IMG/VR virus record: IMGVR_UViG_2541047873_000001
Length of the DNA stretch: 64,000 nt
Reading direction: 5' to 3' (one strand)
From: a virus
Lineage: Duplodnaviria > Heunggongvirae > Uroviricota > Caudoviricetes
Each line of letters starts with the position of its first letter. Within the stretch, counting starts at the first letter, position 1. The notes under the pieces were generated by a model that was not told where the DNA came from, did not search any database, and worked only from the letters and a program-made list of their open reading frames with translations. Made by a program: the position numbers and the translations under genes. Below are positions 3,595 to 55,020 of the stretch, in pieces.

Positions 3595-3607
3595 TGTTAG
3601 CAAATTG

Positions 3608-3625
3608 ATATTAATTTTCTAATAC
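3608..3625. promoter_or_regulatory. C1 operator-like site
   Basis: attaattttctaataca, one mismatch from the recurring 17-mer AAATTAATTTTCTAACA; sits ahead of the gene preceding pacA, as P1 Op88 sits ahead of lpa. Confidence 0.45.
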
Positions 3626-3701: not shown

Positions 3702-4094
3702 ATGGAGCAAATCAGTAGCGCCGAAATAGCGGATATCATGATCAGGGCTAACTGCTATCTGACGGTCACCGAAATCACCAGCCGTGCAAAAGCACAATAT
3801 CCTCACCTTCATGTGTCGCGCGTAAACGTAAATAACATCATACGTTTTTTTGTTCGTTCCAGTCGTGCCATTTGCGAAATAGACGACCGCGTATACCCCC
3901 GGAAATATTGGTTACATGGCCTGAATGGATACCAGTTCAAGGTGCGCGGGCGCACTCCTGAATTCGGTCGGCTGTTGGTGAAAAACACCAACCGAAAGAT
4001 AGAAGCTCAATTACGAAAGGAGCAGCGTCAGTTGGTGGCGATGACTAACCAGCTATGGAACGCCGCTGTGAAAAAACGTGAGGCTTCCCTATGA
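3702..4094 (+). CDS. Lpa-like late promoter activator candidate (by synteny)
   Basis: 130 aa basic protein directly upstream of pacA, preceded by an operator-like site; same arrangement as P1 lpa-pacA-pacB; no sequence-level identification. Confidence 0.35.
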   Translation: MEQISSAEIADIMIRANCYLTVTEITSRAKAQYPHLHVSRVNVNNIIRFFVRSSRAICEIDDRVYPRKYWLHGLNGYQFKVRGRTPEFGRLLVKNTNRKIEAQLRKEQRQLVAMTNQLWNAAVKKREASL

Positions 4095-7000: not shown

Positions 7001-8038
7001 TTACCAGAGTTTTGCCGCGTACATCGTTTGTGTGAATGTGTACCCATAGCGTTCTTCAACGCTTTTACCGTATTTTTTCCTGGCTTCAGTAAGGCGGATG
7101 CCTGTCAGGTCATCGCCGGAGGCAATCATAACTTCCAGTAGTTCCAGGTCCATTTTATCCAGCCTTGCCATTGCATCTTTAGCCTCTTGAATTTTCCGGC
7201 TAACGATCTGGTGTATGGCTGGATCGGCTTCGGCCAGCATTTTATCTGATTTGTTTTTTAAACTCTGATTGCGGATATCAATGTTTCTCAGGATATATGA
7301 CTTCACGACATAGCTTGGCTGCTGCTTTTCCAGATCACGAACCCGATAAAGGTCAAATTCGCCGAGAAGTCCGCACGGAAGCGGTTTAATGCCAGTGTAA
7401 ATGGTAAGGGTGCGGCGCTCACCAACGTTGTTAACAACGGGAATCTCTGTGTTTGCTTTTTTTGCAAAGATCAGCGCACCGTGCGTACCCACTCTGAAGC
7501 GTGAAAGTCCATTGTTGCCCTCGATATTGGTGGTAATCACCACATCGGTATAACCTTCTTTTCTTGCGCGGTATACCTCGCCCTCACGTTCAGCGGCGAA
7601 GAATCTGCGTTCTTCTTCAAGCGCACCGACAACCTGTGAAAATATCCTGTTTTTCATGCTTTTCTTTATAGTTTTATCGTATTTTTTCAACAGGTCTTCG
7701 CGCGTAAATGTTCTCGTTGTGGTTGCGCTTTGCATAACGATATGCGTACTCTGATTAGTATCCTCAACAATGAATGGGATCGGTAAATAAACCGACTCAA
7801 CAATGTTTGAGGCTTTGTCATCATCCTTGCGACACAGATCAACAAAGGCTTTCCATTCGGCTACGCATTTTTCAGCTTCTTCTAATACAGCCGGATCATG
7901 TGTTAATGCAACATGGCGAAATTCCTCGCCAACATAACTGGTATCATGGAAAACAGAGTTTGCGACCACCAGCTCTTTCCACCGTTCAGCGGTTTGCAGG
8001 AACCGTTTGTACTCATTCTCGATCGACTTCTTACTCAT
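7001..8038 (-). CDS. c1: C1-like immunity repressor (by position)
   Basis: About 345 aa from the internal MSKK start (track ORF extends to 8326 with no better start); lies between pacB and the recombinase as c1 does in P1; operator-like sites flank its promoter. Confidence 0.5.
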   Translation of the reverse strand: MSKKSIENEYKRFLQTAERWKELVVANSVFHDTSYVGEEFRHVALTHDPAVLEEAEKCVAEWKAFVDLCRKDDDKASNIVESVYLPIPFIVEDTNQSTHIVMQSATTTRTFTREDLLKKYDKTIKKSMKNRIFSQVVGALEEERRFFAAEREGEVYRARKEGYTDVVITTNIEGNNGLSRFRVGTHGALIFAKKANTEIPVVNNVGERRTLTIYTGIKPLPCGLLGEFDLYRVRDLEKQQPSYVVKSYILRNIDIRNQSLKNKSDKMLAEADPAIHQIVSRKIQEAKDAMARLDKMDLELLEVMIASGDDLTGIRLTEARKKYGKSVEERYGYTFTQTMYAAKLW

Positions 8039-8056
8039 TATTCCTACTCGATTTAG

Positions 8057-8067
8057 TTTTCTAACAT
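8057..8067. promoter_or_regulatory. C1 operator-like site (c1 promoter region)
   Basis: ttttctaacat core; a second inverted copy (tattagaaaa) lies at about 8131-8140. Confidence 0.45.
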
Positions 8068-8233
8068 AAAAGTCCTGTGACAAATTTATGCCGAATAACA
8101 AGGTGAGTAAAGGATAAAACCGCTTTTTTTTGATTGTTCCTATTAGAAAATGTAACCAGGAGCGGCTACCGCATGGCTGACGGATTTGCGAAGTGATCTG
8201 GTCGGTGTTTTTTTGGGAAAAAGTCCCGATTTC

Positions 8234-8265
8234 TAACTTTAAATAATTGGCATTATTTAAAGTTA
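8234..8265. other. rox-type site-specific recombination site
   Basis: taactttaaataat-tggc-attatttaaagtta: perfect 14 bp inverted arms around a 4 bp spacer, about 150 bp upstream of the recombinase gene; matches my recollection of the Dre target rox (reverse complement). Confidence 0.8.
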
Positions 8266-8417: not shown

Positions 8418-9446
8418 ATGGGTGAACTAGTTATCTCCGGCGGTTCTGGTGGTTTTCTGCGCGATATTGGCACCGAATACCAGGAAGCTGCAAAAAACTT
8501 TATGCAGTTCATGAACGACCAGGGAGCTTATGCCCCAAATACACTTCGTGATCTCCGTCTGGTGTTTCATTCCTGGGCGCGGTGGTGTAACTCGCGCCAG
8601 CGCCCCTGGTTCCCGATTACGCCGGAAATGGCCCGCGAGTATCTTCTCCAGTTGCATGAGGCCGATCTGGCTTCGACCACCATTGATAAGCACTATGCCA
8701 TGCTTAACATGCTGCTTTCGCAATGTGGCCTCCCGCCGCTGTCGGACGATAAAAGTGTGTCTCTGGCCATGCGGCGCATCCGGCGCGAAGCGGCAACGGA
8801 AAAAGGCGAGCGAACAGGCCAGGCTATACCGTTGCGGTGGGATGATCTGAAATTGCTCGACGTGTTGCTGTCCCGTTCCGAGCGGCTGGTGGACCTGCGC
8901 AATCGGGCGTTTCTCTTCGTGGCATACAATACCCTGATGCGTATGTCAGAAATCTCGCGCATCCGCGTCGGAGATCTGGACCAAACAGGTGACACTGTAA
9001 CGCTGCATATTTCACACACGAAGACCATCACGACCGCCGCAGGACTTGATAAGGTGCTTTCTCGTTACACTACCGCCGTACTGAACGACTGGCTGGAGGT
9101 GTCCGGACTTCGAGAACATCCGGACGCGGTGCTATTCCCGCCAATACACCGCAGTAATAAGGCCAGAATCACGACAACGCCCCTTACTGCACCTGCAATG
9201 GAGAAAATATTCAGCGATGCCTGGGGGTTGCTGAACAAACGAGATGCCACGCCGAACAAGGGAAGATACCGGACGTGGACAGGCCATAGTGCGCGTGTTG
9301 GTGCGGCAATTGATATGGCTGAGAAACAGGTGTCAATGGTCGAGATCATGCAGGAAGGCACATGGAAAAAGCCCGAAACACTTATGCGATATTTGCGCCG
9401 TAGCGGGGCATCCGTTGGTGCAAATAGTCGCCTGATGGATTCATAA
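8418..9446 (+). CDS. dre: Cre-family tyrosine recombinase (Dre-like)
   Basis: 342 aa; colinear with P1 Cre by eye (WFP, LAFxxxAYNTLxRxxEIxRIRVxD, GHSARVGAAxDMA, C-terminal Tyr region). Confidence 0.9.
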   Translation: MGELVISGGSGGFLRDIGTEYQEAAKNFMQFMNDQGAYAPNTLRDLRLVFHSWARWCNSRQRPWFPITPEMAREYLLQLHEADLASTTIDKHYAMLNMLLSQCGLPPLSDDKSVSLAMRRIRREAATEKGERTGQAIPLRWDDLKLLDVLLSRSERLVDLRNRAFLFVAYNTLMRMSEISRIRVGDLDQTGDTVTLHISHTKTITTAAGLDKVLSRYTTAVLNDWLEVSGLREHPDAVLFPPIHRSNKARITTTPLTAPAMEKIFSDAWGLLNKRDATPNKGRYRTWTGHSARVGAAIDMAEKQVSMVEIMQEGTWKKPETLMRYLRRSGASVGANSRLMDS

Positions 9447-9463
9447 ATTAATTTTCTAACAAT
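9445..9463. promoter_or_regulatory. C1 operator-like site
   Basis: taaattaattttctaacaa immediately after the recombinase stop; the 17-mer recurs at 24982-24998. Confidence 0.45.
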
Positions 9464-9490
9464 CTTTTTAGACAGTGCATTTTAATGTAA

Positions 9491-9522
9491 AGTACCCTCG
9501 CCTATTGCGGAGGGTACTTTGC
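9491..9522 (+). terminator. hairpin terminator after recombinase gene
   Basis: 9 bp stem agtaccctc/gagggtact with 10-nt loop, short T tract. Confidence 0.4.
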
Positions 9523-16148: not shown

Positions 16149-16682
16149 TCAGTTGTATCCGATTGGATTAACCGCAACAATAACGCCATCCGCGAACAAA
16201 TCTTTAATGAGGTGTTCGCTCGGCTCGCCTTTTTCGTACTCTTCAATAAGGTAAGTGTCTCCATCCTCATTGATATAAACTGGAAGAATGGAACCGTTGA
16301 TGAAGTAGGTTCCGTTGTTATCGAGGATTTTTGCCTCGGCGATTTGTTTTTTGGTAAAAAGATCTTCTTTTTTCAAAGTTGCCATATCTGTTTCCTTATG
16401 TGGGTTAATTTTATTGTGTAGCTTCCTGAATGGGGTCCACACTATATCGATATACAGTTCAACTAACGGTTCAAATACTTTCCCCATTAGAACAGTCACT
16501 AATATTGAGGCTATTGGTATCAGCAACACGAAAAACAGAATGATAAACAGCAATTCTATTGCTCTACTCTTTCGCGGATATTCTTTTCTGAATAAAGTGG
16601 GCATTTCCTCCCCATTAAATGCCTCAATGATTTCTCCAGTGTTTTGCGCTGCACCTGAATTATCTTTAAATCCTTCTTTCAT
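16149..16682 (-). CDS. membrane hypothetical protein (AT-rich moron)
   Basis: 177 aa; central hydrophobic helix (LLFIILFFVLLIPIASILVTVLMG); region is about 39 percent GC versus about 50 percent around it. Confidence 0.5.
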   Translation of the reverse strand: MKEGFKDNSGAAQNTGEIIEAFNGEEMPTLFRKEYPRKSRAIELLFIILFFVLLIPIASILVTVLMGKVFEPLVELYIDIVWTPFRKLHNKINPHKETDMATLKKEDLFTKKQIAEAKILDNNGTYFINGSILPVYINEDGDTYLIEEYEKGEPSEHLIKDLFADGVIVAVNPIGYN

Positions 16683-17410
16683 CGTTTGCTATCTTCCTCA
16701 CACCCAAGATATGAAAGAGATGTAATTGCTTTTGCACGGAAACCACCAACCTTGCTAAGTGCGCTTTTAAGTGCGTCAAGGTCAGATTGTGATTTGATCA
16801 TGAAAGTTAACCGCGCAATTCCAGACATAGAGTCAGAACCATTCACTGCGTTGTAGTGATATATGTATCGGGTGACTGATTGAGTCACGCCCTCCTGCTG
16901 GTGGTTTATATTGGCGTCCTGTCTTGTGTTGGCCTGCTCCAACTCTTCGATACGTTCAGCCATCGCAGCACACTCTTCAAAGTTGCTTAATGCTTTTCGC
17001 TCCGATTCAGCGCATTGTTTTTCCAGTTCTGCTATGCGCTTACCTCCATCCGCGATTACTCCCTCGTAATGCTCGCGCTGCTCGTTGAGTTTTGATTTTG
17101 CCGACTCCAGTTGTTTTGTTAGTTCCGCAATACGGCAAACATCGTTGATACGCGTTTCCTCTAATGCGTTGATCTCATCCAGTAGTGCCAGCGCAACTTT
17201 TGGTGGGATAGCCGCGATATAACGGGCATTAGCACCAGCATTCCTTTGCCCATCAATGCCAGGCCAGTCAATAAAGTATCCGCAATGCCTACCCTCAGAC
17301 GTGCGCGAAGGATAAATGCCGTTATGACCCGGCAAAATATATGCTACCCATTCATCTTGCGTTGCCTGTTCCGCCGCCTCGCGCAGTTCTTGATAGTTAA
17401 TTTTGCTCAC
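16679..17410 (-). CDS. Ead/Ea22-like protein
   Basis: 243 aa; N-terminal MSKINYQELREAAEQA shared with two paralogs downstream; coiled-coil centre. Confidence 0.65.
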   Translation of the reverse strand: MSKINYQELREAAEQATQDEWVAYILPGHNGIYPSRTSEGRHCGYFIDWPGIDGQRNAGANARYIAAIPPKVALALLDEINALEETRINDVCRIAELTKQLESAKSKLNEQREHYEGVIADGGKRIAELEKQCAESERKALSNFEECAAMAERIEELEQANTRQDANINHQQEGVTQSVTRYIYHYNAVNGSDSMSGIARLTFMIKSQSDLDALKSALSKVGGFRAKAITSLSYLGCEEDSKR

Positions 17411-17663
17411 TGGTTGCCTCCGCTTCCCACGTTTTCAGACTTTCACCACAGAACGGGCAAAATGAAATTCGAATCGGCGATTTAGAAAACTCGCCTGACC
17501 GCAGCATGATCAGGTCTTGTGAATGAATTAATGCATGGTTATAGATTTTGTATTTCAGCAGACCTTTTCGCGTCGTGTATTCAGCGTCATGTTCCAGGGA
17601 TTGCGTCAACGCCGCGCACGGTTCTATCTTGTTGCCATTAATTTGGCATTTTGACTCACTCAC
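17397..17663 (-). CDS. small zinc-ribbon hypothetical protein
   Basis: 88 aa with CxxC pair (CPFCGES). Confidence 0.4.
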   Translation of the reverse strand: MSESKCQINGNKIEPCAALTQSLEHDAEYTTRKGLLKYKIYNHALIHSQDLIMLRSGEFSKSPIRISFCPFCGESLKTWEAEATSEQN

Positions 17664-18246
17664 TGGTTGCCCCCTGAATACGCTTAAACTCGATTACCCA
17701 TACCCACGGGTTAGATAGCCAGTTATCCTGCCCGTAAATACTGCGCCAGATATCACCAAAACCAACGCGATAAACAGCTTCAGGTGGCGTAATCTTGTAC
17801 GTCGCCGGAGTTGCGCCTTCTGCTTTAGCATCTGCCTCGCTCATGTCATGCAGCCGTTCCACACGCACGTCGGTAATTTCCAGAAGAATGCGCGATGCCC
17901 AGCGCGGCATGTGAATTGATGGCGTCCACTTTTCTGATACTGGTTTATTACAAACATCGACCGGAACCCGGTGCGTTTGTTCTGTCCAGGAGTTACGCAC
18001 GCTTGCGCGATAAACCAGCGTTGCGACGTCCGTCGCTTTGCCATGTACCCGGTAGGTTTCGCGAACCCAAATACGATCGCCCGGTTGACCATATGGACAA
18101 TGCTTGGCAAGCAACTCTGCGGCAACTGCTCGTCCATAGAATTTTTCTTCAACAATCCTGCGAGTCTGTGTTTTATTCCCGCCAAGAATTGCCCGGACCA
18201 TCTCATCGTTAAAAATCATCCCGCGTTCTTTCATTTTTTGATCCAC
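17656..18246 (-). CDS. hypothetical protein
   Basis: 196 aa; N-terminal MIFNDEMVRAILGGNKTQTRR motif; family not placed. Confidence 0.5.
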   Translation of the reverse strand: MDQKMKERGMIFNDEMVRAILGGNKTQTRRIVEEKFYGRAVAAELLAKHCPYGQPGDRIWVRETYRVHGKATDVATLVYRASVRNSWTEQTHRVPVDVCNKPVSEKWTPSIHMPRWASRILLEITDVRVERLHDMSEADAKAEGATPATYKITPPEAVYRVGFGDIWRSIYGQDNWLSNPWVWVIEFKRIQGATSE

Positions 18247-18250
18247 TCCA

Positions 18251-19246
18251 TCAGTTATTGAACGTGATCACTCCGCGCTCGATGGCGAAGTCGAAAAGCT
18301 GGTTGGCGGCTACGTAAAGGCGTATGCCATGTGCTTTTTCCCATGCCCGGACATCGTTTTCTGCGCTTCTGGCGCATTCATCGCAAAGAGGAACGGCCCA
18401 GCGATCGTGTTCGTTTAACGAGCGGGCGCGGTACATGAACGGGTGATTAACTTTGCCTCCGCATCCGATGCACGGACGAGAAATCACAAACCGGAGATAA
18501 GCCGGGCTTTTACCGAGAACCGCTTTTGGTCGGCGCATATACAGCAGGCCGGAATCCTCATCTACAGACAGGTTGACGATCTGCTCTGCGGTTATGTCCA
18601 CCAGCTCACGGGTGCTGTGCTCCCAGGTGATATCCGATTCTTTCAGTGTGCCGGTAGGGATTTCCTGTTTTGGCTGACAAAATGCAATGCGACCGGCTTC
18701 ATCTGGCAGCTCGTCTTTCAGATTCCGGCGAATGGCCCAAAAAGTGAGTTCAACCATGCTCAGATCGCGTTCTGGCGGTAGTTTTAACTCGCTCGCAGCC
18801 CAGTTCATAACCCAGTTGGCACGATTCAGGGATAACTGGTCATCCAGCTTGCCGTACCCCTTCATCATGTATTCCGCATCATGCTTCCAGCACAGGCGAA
18901 CGGCAGAGCCGTTATAGAAATGAGTGGTTAGCTGGTGGCTGCAATCGCGCTTATCGTGCGCCTGGCAATCGTGGATATTGGAACTTACCCAATGAACAAG
19001 CGAATCTTCACCGCCTAATGCGTTAAATACGCGCTCGCTTTGAAAAAATGCTTTCAGAGACTGGTTGGCAACCAGCGAATAGTTCAGATCCACTACGCCA
19101 TCTGGCGTGTTTTCAGCCTGTTCGCGCGGAAGTGGAGAGATAATGAAACGGCGACCTGCGCCAATGTAGTTGCTGGTGGGCTTGTCTACCGGAAAGACAG
19201 CCACACCAGCTCCGTTTACGAAATGAGGTGTGATTATTGCACTCAT
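18251..19246 (-). CDS. DUF968 (YdfU-like) protein
   Basis: 331 aa; C-terminal Cys cluster RPCIGCGGKV...PLCDECA typical of lambdoid DUF968 proteins; first gene after an operator-like pair. Confidence 0.55.
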   Translation of the reverse strand: MSAIITPHFVNGAGVAVFPVDKPTSNYIGAGRRFIISPLPREQAENTPDGVVDLNYSLVANQSLKAFFQSERVFNALGGEDSLVHWVSSNIHDCQAHDKRDCSHQLTTHFYNGSAVRLCWKHDAEYMMKGYGKLDDQLSLNRANWVMNWAASELKLPPERDLSMVELTFWAIRRNLKDELPDEAGRIAFCQPKQEIPTGTLKESDITWEHSTRELVDITAEQIVNLSVDEDSGLLYMRRPKAVLGKSPAYLRFVISRPCIGCGGKVNHPFMYRARSLNEHDRWAVPLCDECARSAENDVRAWEKAHGIRLYVAANQLFDFAIERGVITFNN

Positions 19247-19288: not shown

Positions 19289-19319
19289 TGTTAGAAAATT
19301 AAAATCAATATTCTAACAC
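19289..19319. promoter_or_regulatory. pair of C1 operator-like sites
   Basis: tgttagaaaattaaaatcaatattctaacac: two inverted copies of the TTCTAACA core between two leftward operons. Confidence 0.5.
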
Positions 19320-23531: not shown

Positions 23532-24166
23532 GCAGAACTCCTTCTAACCAAAAGAACGCCATCTTCAGAAACAACGTTGCAGGACTTCAGGTAATTCATT
23601 GCCTCTTTCGGTAATGGATTCTTTGGATCGGCGCTTGCCAGGGATTTCGATAACCTCATGATAAATTTGATCATTACCTTCTGACGGAGCTTGTGCTCAT
23701 GAGATGCAGACAGGTAATAGGAAATGGTATGGGCTAAACGCTCACGAAGCTGTTCTGTGCCGTGATATACAGCAGCGATATCACGCAGTGCATTGACCAG
23801 TTCCCGGTAAATATGCGGAGCAACCTGGCATTCAATGTTGGTTGGTGACTCATAAATTACATTCAGCCCCAGCTTTTGAGCCAGCTCGTGCTCTGCACGA
23901 GCGCCAACTGATTCCTCCCACCCCTTGAGCAAATAGACCGCATTAGCCGAACGCACCATTGCAAGGCAAATATCCATGTATTCGCTCTGGCAGAGGCCAG
24001 CAGGTAACAGCGCCGGATTCAGAACAATATGCCCTACCTCCATCAGCTCTTTTGCTTTCGAAAAAAACGCTGTGCGGTTGTAGTCGGGATAACCAGTCAT
24101 CGGACCCGCGATGTAAATTTTCATAATGCGTTTTGACATCAAAGTTTCCCCAGGAACGTTACGCAA
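23528..24166 (-). CDS. DUF4406-like (nucleoside deoxyribosyltransferase-like) protein
   Basis: Internal start MKIYIAGPMTG...YN...F is the DUF4406 signature; C-terminal extension shares a domain with the 15056-15508 product. Confidence 0.55.
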   Translation of the reverse strand: MRNVPGETLMSKRIMKIYIAGPMTGYPDYNRTAFFSKAKELMEVGHIVLNPALLPAGLCQSEYMDICLAMVRSANAVYLLKGWEESVGARAEHELAQKLGLNVIYESPTNIECQVAPHIYRELVNALRDIAAVYHGTEQLRERLAHTISYYLSASHEHKLRQKVMIKFIMRLSKSLASADPKNPLPKEAMNYLKSCNVVSEDGVLLVRRSSA

Positions 24167-24335
24167 AAGTTGATGAGAGCAAAGAGTTCAATGCCCAGCT
24201 CAAACAACGCCAGGACAGTGAAAAACAGGGCATATAGCAACCCAATTTCTGTACCGGATTGCTGGTGGATTGCACTTATTGCGACAAGCATCATGACCTC
24301 CTGATATAGCGTCTGAAAAAAAGTATCTTCATTTT

Positions 24336-24367
24336 GTGTTAGAAAATCAATTTTGATTTTCTAACAC
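24336..24367. promoter_or_regulatory. palindromic double C1 operator-like site
   Basis: gtgttagaaaatcaa ttttgattttctaacac: perfect 32 bp palindrome of two operator cores between the leftward operon and ref. Confidence 0.6.
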
Positions 24368-24411
24368 ATTTGATCAACCATAGCGGCGATGTAGACAAAC
24401 CGGGTATTTCT

Positions 24412-24987
24412 ATGAAGCAAAGCTATTGGGAGAAACAGACACAAAAAGCCCTGCAAAAACTGGCTGATCCGAAATGGCGGGAGGAACAAAGGGCAAAGCG
24501 TCTTCAGCAAGCTCAACGCCAGCAGCAGCGTGCGCGAGAAAAAGCCGCATCGCCTGAATATCGGCAAAAGAAAATTGAAAAAGCGAAGCAATATGAACAG
24601 CGAAGAAAAGAGAAGGCCGCTTCTGCTCCTGTCAAAAAAACTCGCGCGTCACGCGGCCTGAAAGGCAGAACACTCACAGCAGATGAGCGCCGGATACAAA
24701 CTGCCATCGGTGCTCTCCCCTGCATTGCCTGCCATATGCACGGACAGCATAGCCCTGTGGTATCCCTGCACCACATCTTCGGAAGAACAGCAGAGAACGC
24801 GCATAAATACGTCCTCCCTTTGTGTAAATGGCACCATCAACACGCAGCGCCAGCAGAGATCCGCGAGCAATACCCCTGGTTGGTTCCTGTTCATGCTGAT
24901 GGAAAAATAGGCGGCAAAGCAGATTTCAGGCGGCACAATGCTGATGAAATGACGTTGTATCAGATGGTGACTGAATTAATAAATTAA
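24412..24987 (+). CDS. ref: Ref-like HNH endonuclease (recombination enhancement function)
   Basis: Lys/Arg-rich N-terminus then HNH core GALPCIACHMHG...SLHHI.GRT...PLCKWHHQ resembling P1 Ref; operator-controlled as in P1. Confidence 0.7.
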   Translation: MKQSYWEKQTQKALQKLADPKWREEQRAKRLQQAQRQQQRAREKAASPEYRQKKIEKAKQYEQRRKEKAASAPVKKTRASRGLKGRTLTADERRIQTAIGALPCIACHMHGQHSPVVSLHHIFGRTAENAHKYVLPLCKWHHQHAAPAEIREQYPWLVPVHADGKIGGKADFRRHNADEMTLYQMVTELIN

Positions 24988-25592
24988 TTTTCTAACATTT
25001 TAAGTTGAATTATGAGATCCACCGTTGTACATTCACAACCGATTGGTACACCGGTCAACTTTTTGAGACAAACCGTTTGGTTTTTCGTATGATTGCCGCC
25101 GCCATACCAATGGCGGTGCAATATAGGTGGCTGAAAAGCCCCCGTTGACTCACGGTGTTCCAGCCTTTATTGCGCCGCCACCAGACCGTGGAACAGTCGA
25201 TGGCGGCTCCGAAAGCAAGGAGTCACTACACTATGAACAGCTACTGTCTTTTCCCATCACTCGTTGTCCGCCACTCACGCGATAATCTGCATTCTTTACT
25301 CGCGCTGGGGGTGTCAAAATGACCGTTCGCTACCTCAACTTTCAAATCCAGAACATCACTGGCGGTTGCTATGACTGGTTTGTCACTCTCGGAAAAGAAG
25401 TGATCACCGGGAAGCTGGATGAAGTGAAAGCTAAAGCAATGGCCTACGCCTGCAAGCAAGCCCAAAAGAAGAAAAGAAAAGCATAAGAAAACACACAGTT
25501 GCGCCCTGGCATTATCGTGGGGTATATTTCTACGGCACCTTAGAAAAACGGGTGCCGGGATTGGAACCCCGGATAATGCAAAAGGCGACACA

Positions 25593-25616
25593 GACGCCGA
25601 AAGCGTCTTTTTTTGT
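25593..25616 (+). terminator. rho-independent terminator
   Basis: gacgc-cgaaa-gcgtc hairpin followed by T7. Confidence 0.7.
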
Positions 25617-25639: not shown

Positions 25640-25790
25640 GTAGCGTTTAGCTCAGAGATCAATGGTAGTGCTGGCTGGGCTGCCGAAAGGCAGGCCGGTT
25701 CCCTTTTGCGCCGGTAGTTCCAACCCAGTCAGTGCTACCGCCATTGAGATTGGAACCTCACGCGGTAGCTCCTTAAATTAGCAAAAGGAG
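25640..25790 (+). ncRNA. c4-like structured regulatory RNA candidate
   Basis: No ORF; 16 bp stem (25664-25679 with 25724-25739) enclosing hairpins; repeated GGTAG/CTACC elements complementary to the region just ahead of the downstream RBS; position matches P1 c4. Confidence 0.35.
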
Positions 25791-25799
25791 GCTGCCAAT

Positions 25800-26015
25800 A
25801 TGGCTACTATCCCTACCCCAACTCATTCTGAATTTATCTGGCGTTTCTATTCCTGCCAAAAACACCTCTATATCTGCGTAATGGCTGCTACCGAAGCAGA
25901 GGCGCGCTCATACCTTCCCGAAGAACCCTGTATTTTTGCTGCTCGCTTCACTCTTGATGCGATGGAGATCCTCAATTACTGGAATCTGCCGATGAACTGC
26001 GTGGAGGTGCACTGA
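25800..26015 (+). CDS. small protein in Icd position
   Basis: 71 aa ORF with strong RBS (aaaggagg) overlapping the antirepressor start, as icd overlaps ant in P1; no sequence-level call. Confidence 0.3.
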   Translation: MATIPTPTHSEFIWRFYSCQKHLYICVMAATEAEARSYLPEEPCIFAARFTLDAMEILNYWNLPMNCVEVH

Positions 26016-26956
26016 TGAATCTGTCCATCTCTCAAAAAGCGACAATGACCAGCATTGAGATCGCGGAACTGGTGGGAAGTCGTCACTCTGATGTTAAACG
26101 CAGCATCGAAAGACTTGTTGCTAAAGGAGTTATCCAACATACGCCATTGGCTACAGTTGAGAATAATCAATCACTTAGCCCTAATAAATACACAAAAGCC
26201 TATTTCTTCGAAGGCGAACAAGGCAAGCGCGATAGTATTATCGTCGTCGCGCAGCTCTCTCCGGAATTCACCGCCCGGCTGGTGGACCGCTGGCGCGAAC
26301 TGGAGAATGTCAGGGGACCGTTAAAATCAAAAGCCGAAATCCTGGCTGAAATGGCGCAAATGCATCTTGAGCATGAACGCAGGATCAACGCCGTAAATGC
26401 CCAGGTAGCCGAGGTATCGGCACAAGTGTCCAGGGTCACCGAAACACTTGAGCAGATCAAGAAAGGCAATATTCCAGAAGGCTACATTGGCTATCGCCAG
26501 TTGGCGGCAAAATGCGGCCTGACTGAAGCCAAATGCCGCAACCTGGTCAACGCTTACCGGATACCCACTGATACGCATGAGTTTTTAACTCCCGACGGTT
26601 TGCTTGCGCGACGCTCCATTGTGGCCCTGGCCCCCTTCCGGAAAGCCTTTAAGCAGGTTATGTCGGAGGCAGAACCACGTAACAAACGCTGGTATCATCC
26701 CAGGATGGGGCTATTTCAGGCCATTCACCATCCTGTGCCTGAAAGTCCAAAGGCAAACCTGTCGTTGCATACCGCCAGAGAGAAGATTAAAACAGGGTAT
26801 GCAACCGTATGCCGTCGAGCATCCTGGCCTGAAAGTGTCTGGGTATGGCCCGAAAGAGGCTCACGGAAAAACTGGCGCACCATTCGCGACGGCAAGATCT
26901 GTGCGATTGATTTACAGCCAGAAGATGTAGCAGCGACCGACTGGATTGTTAGTTAA
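26015..26956 (+). CDS. antirepressor, Rha-family N-terminal domain
   Basis: 313 aa; N-terminal MTSIEIAELVGSRHSDVKRSIERL typical of Rha-type phage regulatory proteins; hairpin terminator at about 26964-26986. Confidence 0.65.
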   Translation: MNLSISQKATMTSIEIAELVGSRHSDVKRSIERLVAKGVIQHTPLATVENNQSLSPNKYTKAYFFEGEQGKRDSIIVVAQLSPEFTARLVDRWRELENVRGPLKSKAEILAEMAQMHLEHERRINAVNAQVAEVSAQVSRVTETLEQIKKGNIPEGYIGYRQLAAKCGLTEAKCRNLVNAYRIPTDTHEFLTPDGLLARRSIVALAPFRKAFKQVMSEAEPRNKRWYHPRMGLFQAIHHPVPESPKANLSLHTAREKIKTGYATVCRRASWPESVWVWPERGSRKNWRTIRDGKICAIDLQPEDVAATDWIVS

Positions 26957-29365: not shown

Positions 29366-29696
29366 TCAACTCAGTAGCTTTGTTAACTCCCTTAATACCA
29401 GGTAGAAGAGTAACAAAAATACTAACGCCAGTATTTGCGTGGTCAACGAGGCGTTCATAAACAGAACAATTAGCTTTAACAATTCGAGAATAACGTCCAT
29501 GTCATTCACACTATTTAATTTTTAATCTACAGCCAGCAAACAATGAAGCTGGCCCCCGCATAAAGATTAATGAAAGTCACTTGTCACCAGTGAGGGGATT
29601 TATGAACCACATCCCCCTGAACTGGTGGACTGTCTATTTCTCGCATTTCACACCCTGCATACAGTTCCCCCCAGGTTATGACTGTGAGGAACTGTT

Positions 29697-31248: not shown

Positions 31249-31986
31249 TTACTTGTCCTTTGATGTCGATTGAGACTCATATATTGTCTCTACGTCATCT
31301 ATTAGTTTATTAATACCCCACAATCCAGTGTCTTTATAAAAATCGCTTTCTTCAATTGCTTTTAATAAATCGGCAAAATCTTCTTGGGTGGAAATTCTTT
31401 TCTTTTTTGCTTTATATACATCGACAATTACTTTTATGCCGTGATACAGAGCCAATCTGGCACTCTCAGTCTCTCTCTTCTTCTCTTCAATTGCAGACAA
31501 TAATTTATATTGATCTTCTGTTTGCTTTTCTAGACTTAAAAGCTTGCTCTCTTTTTGCTTCAAGTTGATCTGCAACTCTTTTATTCTTGCCCTCTCTTCT
31601 AAATCAAACTCATAGTCAATGTATCTAATTCTTGCATAGTTCCTGCCTGTTGCTTTTGATATATACATTGTTATATAAGGCATTACCACTGACGCAGTGG
31701 TTCCATATATAAATGGCATAACAAAATGAGCCACAAACGGAGATACAATGATGGGGCCAACATAAGGAAAGTGATATTTCTCACCAACCCATACTATAGA
31801 CAATGTTGTATATATATCGTACTTTGATTTAAATAATATAATAATATCCTGCCAGTTAACGACAAAGAAAGAAACCACAACATATGCAAACAACTTATTG
31901 AATAACTTGTCTCTTATGGCTTCTTCTATTGTGTTCCTGACTGTGACATTTTCATCTTTATTTTCTAATGATGAATCTTTGCTCAT
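31249..31986 (-). CDS. AT-rich membrane-anchored coiled-coil protein
   Basis: About 245 aa; roughly 33 percent GC versus about 50 percent flanks; hydrophobic helices in residues 30-110 then long coiled coil; immediately downstream of higA on the same strand. Confidence 0.6.
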   Translation of the reverse strand: MSKDSSLENKDENVTVRNTIEEAIRDKLFNKLFAYVVVSFFVVNWQDIIILFKSKYDIYTTLSIVWVGEKYHFPYVGPIIVSPFVAHFVMPFIYGTTASVVMPYITMYISKATGRNYARIRYIDYEFDLEERARIKELQINLKQKESKLLSLEKQTEDQYKLLSAIEEKKRETESARLALYHGIKVIVDVYKAKKKRISTQEDFADLLKAIEESDFYKDTGLWGINKLIDDVETIYESQSTSKDK

Positions 31987-36071: not shown

Positions 36072-36100
36072 CAAAATGCAAAACTGTATTAGATAATTGA

Positions 36101-36117
36101 GTTTTATTTTCTAACAC
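36101..36117. promoter_or_regulatory. C1 operator-like site
   Basis: gttttattttctaacac ahead of the rdgC operon. Confidence 0.5.
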
Positions 36118-36130
36118 AGTTTTGCTAAAC

Positions 36131-37036
36131 ATGAGATTAGTCGCCTTTAAAAACATATACGTCTATCGCCTTGCCCGCGAAATAAAACTGGACTCAACCA
36201 CCGTTAGTGATGCCTTAAGCCAATTCACATTCACTCCATGCGCATCACAAGAAATGGCAAAAGTCGGATGGGTGCCGGTTCTGGCTGACAACCTGATCCA
36301 TGAATACCACGGTTTTCTACTTCTCCAGCAACAGCGAGAAATTAAGCTCCTGCCCTCTCATGTCATTAAGGAGGAAGTGCAGAAAAAAGTGGAAAAGCTC
36401 GAAAATGAGCAATCTCGTAAGCTGAAGAAGTCGGAAAAAAACACCCTGAAGGATGAAGTTCTCCACTCTTTGTTGCCTCGTGCATTCACTCGCAAATCAT
36501 TGTCGCGAATCCTTATTGATCGCGACAACTATCTGGTCTTCGTAGAAGCTTCCAGCGCCAGAAAAGCTGAAGAAATGCTGGCGCTCTTACGTAAATCACT
36601 TGGCAGCCTGCCAGTGATTCCATTCACGCCGATAGAACCGCTCGAAATGACTATGACCGAATGGTTCAAGTCAACATTTCCTCAAGGCTTTAAAGCAGGC
36701 GAAGAAGCCATATTGAAATCTCTGTTCGATGACGGCGGCGCAGTTCGTTGCAAGAAAGTAGACCTACAGTCAGAGGAAATAATGACTCATATTGAAGCCG
36801 GAAAAGTTGCAACAACAGTTGCAATCAACTGGCAGGACCGCGCGACCTTCAGGTTAAACGATGACATGAGCATCAAAGCACTGACGTTTTGCGATGATCT
36901 CTATGACCAGAACGATGACATCGACCGTGAAGATGTTGCCCAGCGATTTGATGCTGACTTCATTCTGTTCACAAGCGAATTATCCGCGATGTTTAGCTCG
37001 CTGGTGGAGGCCATTGGCGGTGAAGCAGAGCATTAA
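36131..37036 (+). CDS. rdgC: recombination-associated protein RdgC
   Basis: 301 aa; colinear with E. coli RdgC (FKNxxVYRL, FTPCxSQxMAKxGWVP, LKDEVLHSLLPRAF, LALLRKSLGSLPV, DELRDQNEDIDREDxAQRFDADFIL). Confidence 0.85.
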   Translation: MRLVAFKNIYVYRLAREIKLDSTTVSDALSQFTFTPCASQEMAKVGWVPVLADNLIHEYHGFLLLQQQREIKLLPSHVIKEEVQKKVEKLENEQSRKLKKSEKNTLKDEVLHSLLPRAFTRKSLSRILIDRDNYLVFVEASSARKAEEMLALLRKSLGSLPVIPFTPIEPLEMTMTEWFKSTFPQGFKAGEEAILKSLFDDGGAVRCKKVDLQSEEIMTHIEAGKVATTVAINWQDRATFRLNDDMSIKALTFCDDLYDQNDDIDREDVAQRFDADFILFTSELSAMFSSLVEAIGGEAEH

Positions 37037-43485: not shown

Positions 43486-43812
43486 ATGACTAAAAATACT
43501 CGTTTTTCCCCCGAAGTCCGTCAACGGGCAGTCCGTATGGTTCTGGAAAGTCAGAGCGAATATGACTCACAATGGGCGACAATTTGTTCCATTGCTCCAA
43601 AGATTGGCTGTACGCCGGAGACTCTGCGTGTCTGGGTTCGCCAGCATGAGCGGGATACCGGGGGCGGTGATGGAGGGCTCACCACCGCTGAACGTCAGCG
43701 TCTGAAAGAGCTGGAACGTGAAAATCGTGAACTGCGCCGCAGTAACGATATCCTTCGCCAGGCTTCCGCTTATTTTGCGAAGGCGGAGTTCGACCGCCTC
43801 TGGAAAAAATGA
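43486..43812 (+). CDS. IS629 transposase OrfA
   Basis: 108 aa HTH/leucine-zipper protein, recognised as IS629 OrfA by eye. Confidence 0.9.
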
Positions 43813-44699
43813 TGCCACTGCTGGATAAGCTGCGTGAGCAGTACGGGGTCGGACCGCTATGCAGCGAACTGCATATTGCCCCGTCAACGTATTACCACTG
43901 TCAGCAACAGCGACATCATCCGGATAAACGCAGTGCCCGTGCGCAGCGCGATGACTGGCTGAAGAAAGAGATACAGCGCGTATACGATGAAAATCACAAG
44001 GTATACGGTGTGCGTAAAGTCTGGCGTCAGTTGTTACGGGAAGGTATCAGAGTGGCCAGATGCACTGTGGCACGTCTCATGGCGGTTATGGGACTTGCCG
44101 GTGTTCTCCGGGGTAAAAAGGTCCGTACGACCATCAGCCGGAAAGCCGTTGCCGCAGGCGACCGCGTAAACCGTCAGTTCGTGGCAGAACGACCTGACCA
44201 GCTGTGGGTGGCTGATTTTACTTACGTCAGCACATGGCGGGGCTTCGTCTATGTGGCGTTCATCATTGATGTGTTTGCCGGATACATCGTGGGGTGGCGG
44301 GTCTCATCGTCCATGGAAACGACATTCGTGCTGGATGCACTGGAGCAGGCGTTATGGGCCCGTCGACCGTCCGGCACGGTCCATCACAGTGATAAAGGTT
44401 CTCAGTATGTATCGCTGGCCTACACACAGCGGCTTAAGGAAGCCGGATTACTGGCATCAACAGGAAGTACAGGCGACTCGTATGACAACGCGATGGCGGA
44501 GAGCATCAATGGTCTTTACAAAGCGGAGGTAATACACCGTAAGAGCTGGAAAAACCGTGCAGAAGTGGAACTGGCCACACTCACGTGGGTGGACTGGTAT
44601 AACAATCGACGATTGCTGGAAAGGCTGGGCCATACTCCTCCGGCAGAAGCAGAAAAAGCTTATTATGCTTCCATCGGAAACGATGATCTGGCAGCCTGA
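43809..44699 (+). CDS. IS629 transposase OrfB (DDE catalytic domain)
   Basis: 296 aa in the -1 frame relative to orfA, overlap at the A-rich aaaaaatg region consistent with programmed frameshifting. Confidence 0.9.
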
Positions 44700-45081: not shown

Positions 45082-45474
45082 TCACTGTCTCCATGCATTT
45101 TTCAGCTCCGGAATATCAGCCATTTCAACCAGCTTCCGAAGCCCCGCGCTGACCTTCCCATTACCAACCGCAGCAAGCCAATCCCTTACTGACTTCGGCA
45201 TATAAAGAGTGGTGGTTACAGGATCTTCCACTCTTACAGGTGTGCCGATTTGAGGCCACTTAACAGATGCCAAAACGTCAGAAGGCGGGGTAAGCGCGGG
45301 AACATTAAGAATAGCCTTTCCTGAATGGAGAATCACGATTCGTTCAGCCAGGGAAAGAATGTCTCTTTCAGTAAGGATTGATGACAGTTGAGCTTCTACA
45401 AGGCATCTGCTGCTTGTATTCAGAGAATGGCTTTTAGCACCATTTTTGTATGAAACGAAGATCTTGTACGCCAT
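45082..45474 (-). CDS. hypothetical protein
   Basis: 130 aa; first gene of the leftward operon fronted by operator-like sites at 45491-45554. Confidence 0.5.
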   Translation of the reverse strand: MAYKIFVSYKNGAKSHSLNTSSRCLVEAQLSSILTERDILSLAERIVILHSGKAILNVPALTPPSDVLASVKWPQIGTPVRVEDPVTTTLYMPKSVRDWLAAVGNGKVSAGLRKLVEMADIPELKNAWRQ

Positions 45475-45490: not shown

Positions 45491-45554
45491 TGTTAGAAAA
45501 TTAAGATTAAACCATACTAACACAAGATTGTTAACGAAAATTATTTTTCTAATG
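45491..45554. promoter_or_regulatory. C1 operator-like sites in divergent promoter region
   Basis: tgttagaaaattaag (inverted) and ttttctaatgc cores between the leftward operon and the capsid gene. Confidence 0.45.
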
Positions 45555-45633: not shown

Positions 45634-47331
45634 GTGAACAAGAACATTGAGCCAGCTCGTAAGCGCGAGCGCGAGATTATGAATCGGGCGGCAAGCGTCA
45701 TGGCTATGACCGTCGATCCAACCACTGATGCTGCCGGTAACATGATTACCGACAACGAAGTGATGATGGCTAACCTGGAAAAAGCTATCCAGAAAGAGCC
45801 AATGTTTGAAGGCGTTGGACCAGAAGCAGCTCGCCAGATCATTGGTAGCTGGGCCATGTCTATTCATGAATACAAACGCCAGCATGGGCATTATCCGGCA
45901 AGCGATGTATTAGCCAACGCCCATGTAGCACTTGAGCGCCTGATGATGGAGTCCGCTAAAGAGACGCATGAAGGCGCTGGCAAAGCCATGTTTGAATCAG
46001 TAGCCAAGGACATGCGCACCTCCGATGGTGTAATGAAGGTTGCACAATATGCCGCACTGATCCTGCCTGCTTCTCTCGGCGCAGCCACCAGCGACGCATG
46101 TACGTTTATCCCTTGTGATCGTGATGAAACCAATATTTACGAGCTGACCAACGTTGCTGGTACAAAATTCGGTACATTCGAGCAGGGCGATGAACTGAAC
46201 ATGCAGTCTGCTGGCGTGTATTCGCAGATGAAACGCCTGTACATCCTGACCGAAAAAGGCGATGGCAGCAAAACCACCTTCCAGTTTGATATCCAGAACT
46301 TCGAAGGCCAGGCCTGCCCGCTGCGCCAGGGCTACAACAAACTGCTGATTAACCGCAAACCGTCCAAAGTAGATGATGGTGACGGCAACCTGTATTTCAA
46401 CGACAAAGACGTCAACGGCAACTCTTTCTCTGCTACAGCAAAAGTTAAATACGATACCGGCGTTATCGATATCACCTTTAATGAAGCACCAGCAGAAGGC
46501 ACAGAAATCGCTGTTCAGGTTGAAATCAACATTGAACGCAATCCGAGCCTGATACCAGTCATTAACCAGTCCATGCGCAATTACGCCCTGCGCCCGTCGC
46601 AGTACGTGATCGCATCCGAACATACGGTTATGACAGCATCTGACCTGAGCCGTGAACACGGACTCGAACTGGCAGCATTGCAATTCTCCGCAATGCGCAA
46701 CTGGATTTCCCACGAAATCGATATGATGCGCCTGCGCACTCTGGTATTCCACACAGTTTACGGTCGTGAATTTGATGTGGCACTGCCAGAAGCGCAGAAC
46801 TACGAATCGTGGGTTGGTTTAATTCGCCATGTAGTGAACGCGCTGTCACAGGACATGGCTGACCGCACCCTGACTACCGGTATCCGTGGTGGCTTTGCTG
46901 GTGGCGATGCTGCTAACTTCCTGCGTTCCTTACCGCCGCAGCACTTCCAGTTGGCACCGGGCTATGTACAGTCGCCGTACATTCAATACATCGGTACCCT
47001 GTTTGGTTCCATTCGTATCTACGAAGTGCCGAAGCCTATCTGCAAACAATTCCAGGAACATGGCTACGACTTTGGCCTGGACGACATCTACTTCTATGGT
47101 CGTGGCGAAGGCATTGGTAAAGCTGGCCTGGTCGCTGGTGATGCTGTGCCTGCTATTCCGTATGTCCACGAAACAAATCCAGCCCTGGTAAACCGCACCA
47201 CTCTTTGGGGTACAGCAATCAACGATGTGCATCCGCGCAACGGTGAGAACTATTTCACTCGCCTTCGCCTGACACGTTCGAAAGAAGGTGCGATTGACAT
47301 GTTGAGCGGGCAAATCAACGAAAAAAAGTAG
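45634..47331 (+). CDS. major head protein candidate
   Basis: 565 aa from GTG start; size and position ahead of the tail genes match P1 gp23; no domain-level confirmation. Confidence 0.5.
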   Translation: MNKNIEPARKREREIMNRAASVMAMTVDPTTDAAGNMITDNEVMMANLEKAIQKEPMFEGVGPEAARQIIGSWAMSIHEYKRQHGHYPASDVLANAHVALERLMMESAKETHEGAGKAMFESVAKDMRTSDGVMKVAQYAALILPASLGAATSDACTFIPCDRDETNIYELTNVAGTKFGTFEQGDELNMQSAGVYSQMKRLYILTEKGDGSKTTFQFDIQNFEGQACPLRQGYNKLLINRKPSKVDDGDGNLYFNDKDVNGNSFSATAKVKYDTGVIDITFNEAPAEGTEIAVQVEINIERNPSLIPVINQSMRNYALRPSQYVIASEHTVMTASDLSREHGLELAALQFSAMRNWISHEIDMMRLRTLVFHTVYGREFDVALPEAQNYESWVGLIRHVVNALSQDMADRTLTTGIRGGFAGGDAANFLRSLPPQHFQLAPGYVQSPYIQYIGTLFGSIRIYEVPKPICKQFQEHGYDFGLDDIYFYGRGEGIGKAGLVAGDAVPAIPYVHETNPALVNRTTLWGTAINDVHPRNGENYFTRLRLTRSKEGAIDMLSGQINEKK

Positions 47332-53053: not shown

Positions 53054-53809
53054 TTAAGACTGCTGATAGGTGAATTTTATTTTTGTAACTCTGCCACCTT
53101 CTGTAACCTCTGAGAAAACTATTTTCATTTTTGTGTTTTTTTCGATTTCAGCTACAGCTTTTGCCAGAAAGCTTCTCTTAAATTCGGCGTACCGTTGATA
53201 GCTTTTGGGAAGACCATAACGCTCCCGCATCCATTCAACGCCAAGTATAGCGAAGCCGCTCCCATCATCCTTTCTATACTGGCATAAGGACTCATAAAGC
53301 CGCATAGAATAAGGGTTTGTCAGGCGAGACACTTCAGTAAAATTCAGCCTCGTGAACCTCTTATCAAGCAGAGTAAAAAACGGCATGAGATATGGATTCA
53401 GATGAATAATGTAAGTCCCCCGGCGTGGTGAGTAAGCCTCCTTAATCATCCAGGGATAAGACTCATAACTGTCTTCTGATTCGGTTGATTCATCAGGGTT
53501 ATATATCGTGACTTTCTTCTCACTAAGTCCGGAGATAGCTTTACGAATATCCTTGCTGGCTTCAGCAGAGGGCAAATTATACATCTCTGCATATTCGTTG
53601 ACCGTCAACTCACAGGCACCTGAACCAAGAACGCCATCCTTAGAAGCATAGCGAAGTCTTCCCACCACAATAAACAACAGTCGCTTTTGGTCGCGTGTCA
53701 GGTGATAAGCCGCCTCTGTGATCTCATTGGCCTGCGCCAAGCTACGGCTAATTGGTGTCGCTGATTCAATCAGACTGACGGCTTTTGCCGTTAATTCCGC
53801 TCTGTTCAT
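53054..53809 (-). CDS. repA: replication initiator RepA (iteron-binding)
   Basis: About 251 aa from MNRAEL; flanked on both sides by iterons as in the P1 R replicon. Confidence 0.75.
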   Translation of the reverse strand: MNRAELTAKAVSLIESATPISRSLAQANEITEAAYHLTRDQKRLLFIVVGRLRYASKDGVLGSGACELTVNEYAEMYNLPSAEASKDIRKAISGLSEKKVTIYNPDESTESEDSYESYPWMIKEAYSPRRGTYIIHLNPYLMPFFTLLDKRFTRLNFTEVSRLTNPYSMRLYESLCQYRKDDGSGFAILGVEWMRERYGLPKSYQRYAEFKRSFLAKAVAEIEKNTKMKIVFSEVTEGGRVTKIKFTYQQS

Positions 53810-54195: not shown

Positions 54196-55020
54196 TTGAA
54201 CATTCCCAAATTCCCATTGCCTTCACAGCCTGAAATAGAAATTCAGTTTCATGCACCTACTGTGAAAGATGCCCTGAAATATTCAGACATCAATCCGGCA
54301 GAAGACGAGGCAACCACAACAGAATACCTCAATGCTATGCAAGACGGCGAAATTAACGACAGCTCAAACTGGACAGTTCAGGATCGCAGAACCGCGCTTT
54401 GGTGGATCTTTGTTAATTCCAGGCCTGATGCCGTCATGACTTACTCATACGAGTGTGGTCACTGTGGAAACGTTCATCACGCAGATATTAACCTTTCAGA
54501 CCTTGCCGAAACGGTAGAAATCCTGACTGTCCCGCCGTTTATTAAAACTATGGTCCCTATAAACGGAGTACCAACCGAGTGGACGCTTAAACCACTAACA
54601 GGGAAAGGAGCTGAATTGCTTGAGCGTATGCGCGCCACTTTGCCTGATATGAAAACTCCAGAGTACAGTGCTGAGGTTGCTCGTCTCCGCATAGCTGAGT
54701 TGGCCTTGTGTACATCTCTGAACGACGATCCAGAAGACTTCACACAAGCTGCAAACAGACGATTCGATATCATTGAAAACATGGCTCTGGAAACCGAGTT
54801 TACCCCTCTGGTAGCTCGCATTCAGCTCATGCAGAAAGACCTTCGCCACGGCTTAAAAATGGCTATTGAACGAGGCACAAGCCGCCTGATCCTACCGCCA
54901 CAACGCTGCAAAAACGCTAAGGAGGGTGCAGACGTGACTACCACGCTGTACGCCCCATTTCTCAATAGAGAGTTTATCCCATCAATTAGATCTGAATGGA
55001 TGGCTAACCATTATCAATAA
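54196..55020 (+). CDS. hypothetical protein
   Basis: 274 aa; contains CGHCGNVHH. Confidence 0.45.
   Translation: MNIPKFPLPSQPEIEIQFHAPTVKDALKYSDINPAEDEATTTEYLNAMQDGEINDSSNWTVQDRRTALWWIFVNSRPDAVMTYSYECGHCGNVHHADINLSDLAETVEILTVPPFIKTMVPINGVPTEWTLKPLTGKGAELLERMRATLPDMKTPEYSAEVARLRIAELALCTSLNDDPEDFTQAANRRFDIIENMALETEFTPLVARIQLMQKDLRHGLKMAIERGTSRLILPPQRCKNAKEGADVTTTLYAPFLNREFIPSIRSEWMANHYQ

Follow-up and report, generated by a model that had tools for sequence, protein, structure and literature searches.

Lysogeny of phage P1 is controlled by the C1 repressor, which binds its operators and represses nearby promoters, while Coi and Ant inactivate C1, the C4 RNA keeps ant in check and Lxc makes C1 binding stronger (PMC8198154). 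The P1 operator consensus is asymmetric, and 22 sites are known (PMC8546580). The immC system of P1 and P7 (consensus ATTGCTCTAATAAATTT), with its many dispersed asymmetric 17-bp sites, some of them overlapping inverted pairs, is the closest parallel to the locus described here, and its repressor is homologous. D6-like elements, with phage D6 (MF356679 / NC_050154) as prototype, form the most distant branch of the P1 group. The DNA analysed in this study, called the window below, is a stretch of 64,000 nucleotides (nt) from the IMG/VR virus record IMGVR_UViG_2541047873_000001 (Caudoviricetes), and it was identified as a D6-like, P1-related plasmid prophage of Escherichia coli. A family of 17-mers in the window most probably (about 85%) represents the operators of its master repressor C1, encoded at 7001-8038. 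For P1, such dispersed operators are textbook knowledge, and what is described here is the D6-type version with a different site sequence.

The motif AAATTAATTTTCTAACA is non-random in the window, where 12 strong sites are grouped into nine loci (Table 1), and the operator consensus obtained was A-W-W-T-T-A-R-T-T-T-T-C-T-A-A-Y-A. Expectations were tested with dinucleotide-preserving shuffles, which never reached the observed counts: the exact core TTTTCTAACA occurred 8 times (0.16 expected), the 17-mer with at most three mismatches 12 times (0.33 expected), and TTTCTAAYA 12 times (1.15 expected), ten of these lying at operator loci and two in genes, which is about the chance number. The weight-matrix scan returned the 12 sites at 21.5-30.8 bits, followed by candidates at 18.3, 16.3 and 13.0 bits, the remainder scoring 9 bits or less. 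The 18.3-bit candidate (36087-36103, minus) is the inverted partner of the site at 36100. Two candidates inside genes, at 31954-31970 and 53074-53090, lack conservation in D6 and probably reflect chance. The centres of all nine strong loci lie outside open reading frames (ORFs), and non-coding DNA makes up about 10% of the window (binomial P ~1e-9). One site overlaps the dre stop codon and another that of ref. When 9-mers were counted without any prior motif, the window motif was second only to Chi, and the known P1 operator ATTGCTCTA ranks likewise in P1.

The motif had been noticed in a first-pass annotation made by a model from the sequence alone, and all of its coordinates were found again: 3608, 8057 (8050-8066), 9445, 19289, 19310 (19302-19318), 24336/24357 (24337-24353 and 24350-24366), 24988 (24981-24997), 36107 (36100-36116), 45491 and 45544 (45538-45554). 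The partner half-sites 3595-3611 (minus) and 36087-36103 (minus) were absent from that list. A site given there as 8131 actually lies at 8141-8157 on the minus strand; it is weak and matches 9 of 10 core bases, but its position is conserved in all five aligned relatives. The annotation had considered that an equal frequency inside coding regions would speak against an operator family, and the distribution is the opposite, with all strong loci intergenic and the two copies of the short core in genes close to the number expected by chance. In four loci (3595-3624, 19289-19318, 24337-24366 and 36087-36116), two sites overlap in inverted orientation, always offset by 13 bp. The earlier description of perfect palindromic pairs holds for 24335-24368, where 16-nt arms are 100% complementary around a 2-nt gap, but the other three pairs are imperfect. 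The invariant part of the motif is the G/C-containing core CTAAC.

The gene at 7001-8038 encodes a protein distantly homologous to P1 C1, with 21% identity over 241 amino acids by BLASTP (E 1e-7) and an hhalign probability of 96.3% (E 1.8e-9). Its homologs at 43-97% identity are labelled PF27008 Phage_P7_repressor_C1, a model not contained in the Pfam set used on the window proteins, and it is 80% identical to the C1 of D6. A C-terminal extension of about 100 amino acids (residues ~245-345; 7001-7305, minus) is conserved in D6-type C1 and lacking in P1 C1; it is predicted to form long helices and has no Pfam match. An origin of the extension from a fused Lxc or Coi was rejected, the hhalign probability being below 1%.

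The sites stand where the operators of P1 stand. Taking the C1 operators curated in the P1 RefSeq record as reference, window sites were found at the positions of P1 Oc1, Olpa, Oref, Omat, Odmt and Oc4. The shared targets, judged by position to be under control, would be c1, lpa, ref, the ref stop codon, the hrdC-dmt operon and the C4-icd-ant region. The genes gave Pfam matches to BPP1_LPA for lpa (E 2.5e-50), to RecA_dep_nuc for ref and to RdgC for hrdC/rdgC (E 1e-100). The list of controlled operons proposed earlier (lpa, c1, ref, rdgC/hrdC-dmt and the leftward early operons) fits the D6 gene mapping.

The sites are also conserved. D6 shares its gene order, motif positions and c1-proximal operator with the window, and 14 sites of at least 20 bits were found in D6 at syntenic places. 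As in D6, further sites would be expected beyond the window, in the repL, second icd-ant and pmgS/pmgR regions; the lpa and ref loci, which are bivalent here, score as single sites in D6. The operators are not annotated in either GenBank record of D6, and the consensus was not found in full-text literature searches, an earlier description in the D6 genome or pac-c1 papers being possible. In IMG/VR, 32 contigs hold sites at fixed offsets from c1: the operator at the dre stop codon is kept at about -1430 in 32/32 loci and in distant relatives, and the lpa operator is kept at +4400 in IMG/VR loci as well as in D6. No relatives were found in a scan of GTDB genomes. CTAA was invariant in 101/101 distinct sites while the arm positions drifted, although these sites had been picked with the matrix itself. 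The motif accompanies D6-type C1 in every relative examined, and the neighbouring genes vary.

The region upstream of c1 is particularly informative. For three elements with a C1 of only 43-50% identity, the intergenic DNA preceding c1 could not be aligned apart from two invariant blocks separated by about 90 bp, and the blocks in five divergent elements are TTTTCTAA, which is the weak 8141 site, and TGTTAGAAA, which is the proximal operator. At the proximal operator, GATTTAGTTTTCTAACA was identical in 30/32 IMG/VR loci, and the location of this site suggests that it is an autoregulatory site for c1. A third block, CTTTACT (8098-8112, reverse complement CCTTTACTCAC), lies between the distal and proximal operators and is partly conserved, in 4/5 divergent relatives. 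In summary, the repressor-regulon reading is well supported because the motif is non-random, the repressor is homologous to C1, the positions are P1-like and the sites are conserved, and the motif behaves as the operator family of the repressor encoded at 7001-8038, as proposed earlier.

Table 1. Predicted operators, repressor gene and antisense RNA of the window, with weight-matrix scores unless stated otherwise
Feature	Position	Strand	Bits	Context
Bivalent operator, lpa	3595..3624	3595-3611 minus; 3608-3624 plus	27.2 and 30.1	78 nt upstream of lpa (3702-4094); counterpart of P1 Olpa
c1 repressor gene	7001..8038	-		345 amino acids; distant P1/P7 C1 homolog
c1-proximal operator	8050..8066	+	23.3	12 nt upstream of c1 ATG
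c1-distal weak operator	8141..8157	-	0.9	core match; oriented toward c1
Monovalent operator, dre stop	9445..9461	+	26.8	exact consensus; overlaps dre (cre-like) stop codon; upstream of orf117-orf116-dut operon
Bivalent operator, pdcB	19289..19318		30.8 and 25.6	inverted repeat; 43 nt upstream of pdcB-like gene (18251-19246, minus), downstream of ppp; D6 counterpart also bivalent (80707/80720)
Bivalent operator, ref	24335..24368	24337-24353 minus; 24350-24366 plus	30.0 and 28.9	between divergent leftward early operon (orf88-like, 24139-24294, minus) and ref (24412-24987, plus); counterpart of P1 Oref
Monovalent operator, ref stop	24981..24997	+	28.7	exact consensus; overlaps ref stop codon, position shared with P1 Omat; heads region of isrK-like RNA, C4 RNA, icd and ant
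C4 antisense RNA	25658..25745	+	76.7 (Rfam RF01695)	followed by icd (25800-26015) and ant (26015-26956)
Doubtful candidate	31954..31970	+	16.3	in coding 5' end of orf73-like gene; probably not functional
Bivalent operator, hrdC	36087..36116		18.3 and 26.6	extended 20-nt inverted repeat 36078-36125; directly upstream of hrdC/rdgC (36122-37036) and methylase genes; counterpart of P1 Odmt; D6 counterpart bivalent (64114/64127)
Monovalent operator, orf52	45491..45507	-	29.9	17 nt upstream of orf52-like gene (45082-45474, minus); kept in D6 at 54199-54219
Weaker candidate operator	45538..45554	+	21.5	CTAATG end; faces gene 23 (major capsid protein, 45634-47331)

The site sequence itself is different from that of P1. 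The window matrix gave no match of at least 10 bits in 44.8 kb of P1, and the P1 matrix reached at best 11.1 bits in the window; on the 19 curated operators of P1 the latter matrix scored 17/19 at 18-29 bits and the other two at 15.1 and 6.4. The two operator types are thus mutually exclusive by matrix search, and the P1 consensus is not matched in the window. Comparison of the matrices against a column-shuffle null gave no significant motif-level homology between the window and P1 operators. The best alignment is core to core (AATTTTCTAACA versus ATTGCTCTAATA, 8/12, score 9.1, p ~0.11), in which only TCTAA is common. The AT-rich half had been thought to resemble the P1 operator, a resemblance that did not hold up, as the alignment scored 5.4 and lies within the null (mean 7.5). 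The core-to-core and AT-arm alignments cannot both hold, and sequence alone cannot choose between them. The core alignment is favoured by orientation, as the motif then tends to point toward the regulated gene, like the P1 operators (about 8/12 loci, D6), whereas the bivalent geometry, which becomes inverted (TTAG-N18-CTAA here versus CTAA-N8-TTAG in P1), disfavours it. Bivalent sites are 30 bp here and 28 bp in P1, and they are more frequent here (4/9 loci).

A distinct immunity specificity had also been predicted for the window. The operators are indeed distinct from those of P1, but they are not private to this element. Among D6-like C1 alleles there are two common classes, ~99% and ~80% identical to the window C1, and rarer alleles at 64-68%. 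One core is found in D6 and all D6-like alleles examined (99, 86, 80-81, 68 and 64% identity) and further down to 43%, and the c1-proximal operator is identical among alleles at 99, 86, 80-81 and 64% identity. A covariation of the C1 allele (99% versus 80%) with the operator was looked for and not found, the proximal site being identical in both classes and the core invariant. The A-to-G differences at arm position 7 of some syntenic sites look like drift. The operator specificity therefore appears, as far as sequence comparison can tell, to differ from that of P1 and to be common to all D6-like C1 alleles, and the divergence of the C1 alleles may reflect the specificity of the antirepressor (Ant) and not DNA specificity.

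By analogy with P1, C1 would bind each asymmetric site through the invariant core TTCTAAYA and the AT-rich 5' arm, and overlapping inverted sites would take two C1 molecules. Binding would silence the early and lytic operons in the lysogen. These would be lpa, whose product activates every late gene, as well as ref, the hrdC-methylase and dre-distal dut operons, a pair of leftward early operons and the immI-like region of C4, icd and ant. Autoregulation would result from the two sites on either side of the c1 promoter region. Induction would proceed via the Ant antirepressor, which the C4 antisense RNA would hold down. The C4 RNA-icd-ant region is, judged by its composition, a putative immI-type second immunity layer, in which icd is 97% and ant 85% identical to D6; its operator at the ref stop codon lies ~660 bp upstream of the C4 RNA here versus ~190 bp in P1. 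An isrK-like Hfq-binding RNA (25535-25613, plus, 62.5 bits) is found in tandem with the C4 RNA, upstream of icd and ant.

Several observations weigh against the C1 operator interpretation or against its details. The binding of C1, the monomer stoichiometry, the choice of occlusion or roadblock and the affected transcripts are all inferred. The sites had been placed in intergenic promoter regions, which is correct for the intergenic part in 9/9 strong loci, but no convincing sigma-70 promoter was found on the sites in a promoter scan; the relaxed scan gave weak 8-of-12 candidates at 7/12 site/direction combinations against a 15% background, which is not convincing. By inspection of the sequence, a plausible weak c1 promoter candidate (TTGTCA-17-AAAACT) would be overlapped by the proximal operator. 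Several sites are only 12-17 nt from start codons. A terminator-like hairpin at 9486-9517 (GTACCCTC...GAGGGTAC, then TTT) was found directly downstream of the operator at 9445-9461 and before the orf117-like gene, which is odd for simple promoter occlusion. Simple promoter occlusion is thus unproven because sites lie near start codons and one is followed by this hairpin. The orientation toward the regulated gene is a trend and not a rule, and the 45538 site is less certain, with no D6 counterpart of at least 8 bits. The circuit also differs from that of P1: tblastn of P1 Coi and Lxc against the window and D6 gave nothing better than E 0.3, the c1-rox interval is too small for coi, and a D6-like plasmid is likewise reported to have no Lxc (PMC6799933).

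Another prophage or host regulator, such as a Rha/Roi/KilA-type protein, an unrecognised early regulator or a nucleoid protein, could bind the sites while C1 recognises something else. No classical DNA-binding domain was recognised in C1 with Pfam, its binding here is an inference, and the AT-rich motif resembles many nucleoid-protein sites. We nevertheless consider such a regulator unlikely: two of the sites flank the c1 promoter region as the sole conserved blocks there, the sites replace the C1 operators of P1 position for position, the motif travels with D6-type C1 while neighbouring genes vary, and besides Chi the k-mer counts contained no rival repeated motif.

It is still less probable, and in our opinion quite improbable, that the motif is a promoter element itself, either a phage-specific -10/-35 element or an Lpa-dependent late promoter box. 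Operons do follow the motif, which tends to be oriented toward them, and by inspection some stretches of it, such as TTAGAA-16-TAACAC within the palindrome, look like weak -35/-10 hexamers. The genes that it precedes are early and regulatory ones, lpa among them, however, and not the structural late operons, and the late promoters of P1 use a different -22 box (AAGTGACTT) together with a -10 element. Features such as perfect inverted pairs, and the position of a site downstream of the likely c1 promoter, are characteristic of operators. A single clear box of the P1 late-promoter type was found in the window (AAGTGACTTTCATTAATCT, 29564-29582, minus), with mat on one side and the tail genes 26/25 on the other, and D6-type late promoters may use a diverged box. 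As for a chance accumulation of an AT-rich word, or remnants of small repeat elements, intergenic DNA is AT-rich and AT-rich matrices align readily with each other; yet the shuffles never reach the counts, the CTAAC core is invariant, and syntenic sites are kept while their flanks diverge, which leaves this explanation a negligible chance. The C1 operator interpretation remains the preferred one.

The C1 of the window has 345 amino acids with the extra helical C-terminal region, as compared to 283 in P1. This extension may be a pairing module, and in the D6 clade it may pair two repressors on the bivalent sites and so replace the missing Lxc co-repressor. The TTAG-N18-CTAA halves of these sites are about two helical turns apart.

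The remaining content of the window is that of a D6-like element. D6 covers 76% of the window between 20 and 30 kb with 88% identity, and E. coli plasmids of ~92 kb align to the window at ~99%. Mapping to D6 gene by gene gave protein identities of 70-98% with the D6 gene order kept, and the mapped genes include lpa, pacA/B, c1, the Dre recombinase with rox, the dut operon, pdcB, ppp, ref, icd/ant, tail genes, hrdC, methylases and the major capsid gene. Between c1 and the gene of the Dre (Cre-like) recombinase (8418-9446), which is 94% identical to D6 Dre, there is a rox-type recombination site (TAACTTTAAATAATTGGCATTATTTAAAGTTA, 8230-8261). An IS3-family insertion sequence with two overlapping ORFs (43486-44699, plus) and extra genes set the window apart from D6; the insertion has no D6 counterpart and carries a frameshift pseudoknot (ALIL, 43767-43883, Rfam 120 bits). 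The genes at 16679-17410 (minus) and 17656-18246 (minus) of the leftward early operon also lack D6 counterparts and are, by this comparison, putative accessory cargo inside the presumed C1-controlled operon. A cluster of four transfer RNA genes is located near the left end (1158-2183, plus). Chi (GCTGGTGG) was counted 29 times on the plus and 14 times on the minus strand versus ~2 expected, and it tops the repeated 8/9-mers of the window, likewise in P1.

The fold of C1 offers a further lead. Tus, a two-domain alpha+beta clamp with interdomain beta-strands, was the sole match of the predicted C1 structure, with low template modelling scores (TM-scores) of 0.31-0.40 and a root-mean-square deviation of ~8 A; the model had a predicted local distance difference test score (pLDDT) of 81 and a predicted TM-score of 0.50, which is moderate confidence, and the truncated C1 model was weaker (pLDDT 69). 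No sequence link between C1 and Tus was found (hhalign probability 0.2%, no match to PF05472 Ter in Pfam even at an E of 10), the C1 family profile had no match among PDB sequences, and literature searches for a C1-Tus connection found none. We suggest tentatively, and with more doubt than confidence, that the C1 repressors of P1- and D6-type phage-plasmids might be Tus-fold monomeric two-domain clamps reading an asymmetric site. What makes the hypothesis attractive is that Tus clamps an asymmetric site as a monomer. TerB is placed 10 bp ahead of the tus start codon, similar to the proximal operator 12 bp upstream of c1; Tus-Ter is a replication fork trap, whereas C1 would be a transcriptional repressor with many sites. 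If true, the Tus fold would explain the lack of symmetry of the P1 operators, an old puzzle, and the oriented sites found here, and the several sites between the likely promoter and the start codon would fit an orientation-dependent, Tus-like roadblock. It would also tie the enterobacterial Tus-Ter fork trap, which is taxonomically restricted, to the immunity repressors of enterobacterial phage-plasmids and provide a possible evolutionary source for Tus. A Tus-like fold, if confirmed, would be a more significant result than the operator set.

To our knowledge, the lysogeny control of D6-like elements has not been studied experimentally, and a predicted regulon map and a consensus are now available for these phage-plasmids. 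Elements of this type are found widely among E. coli, Shigella and Salmonella, invasive S. Typhimurium ST213 included (PMC6799933). The predicted sites could be used as binding probes and as orthogonal repressor/operator parts. Our results predict that D6-like elements would be heteroimmune to P1 at the level of C1 and would have one C1 specificity among themselves. With one shared C1 specificity, any immunity differences within the group would have to come from the C4/Ant layer.
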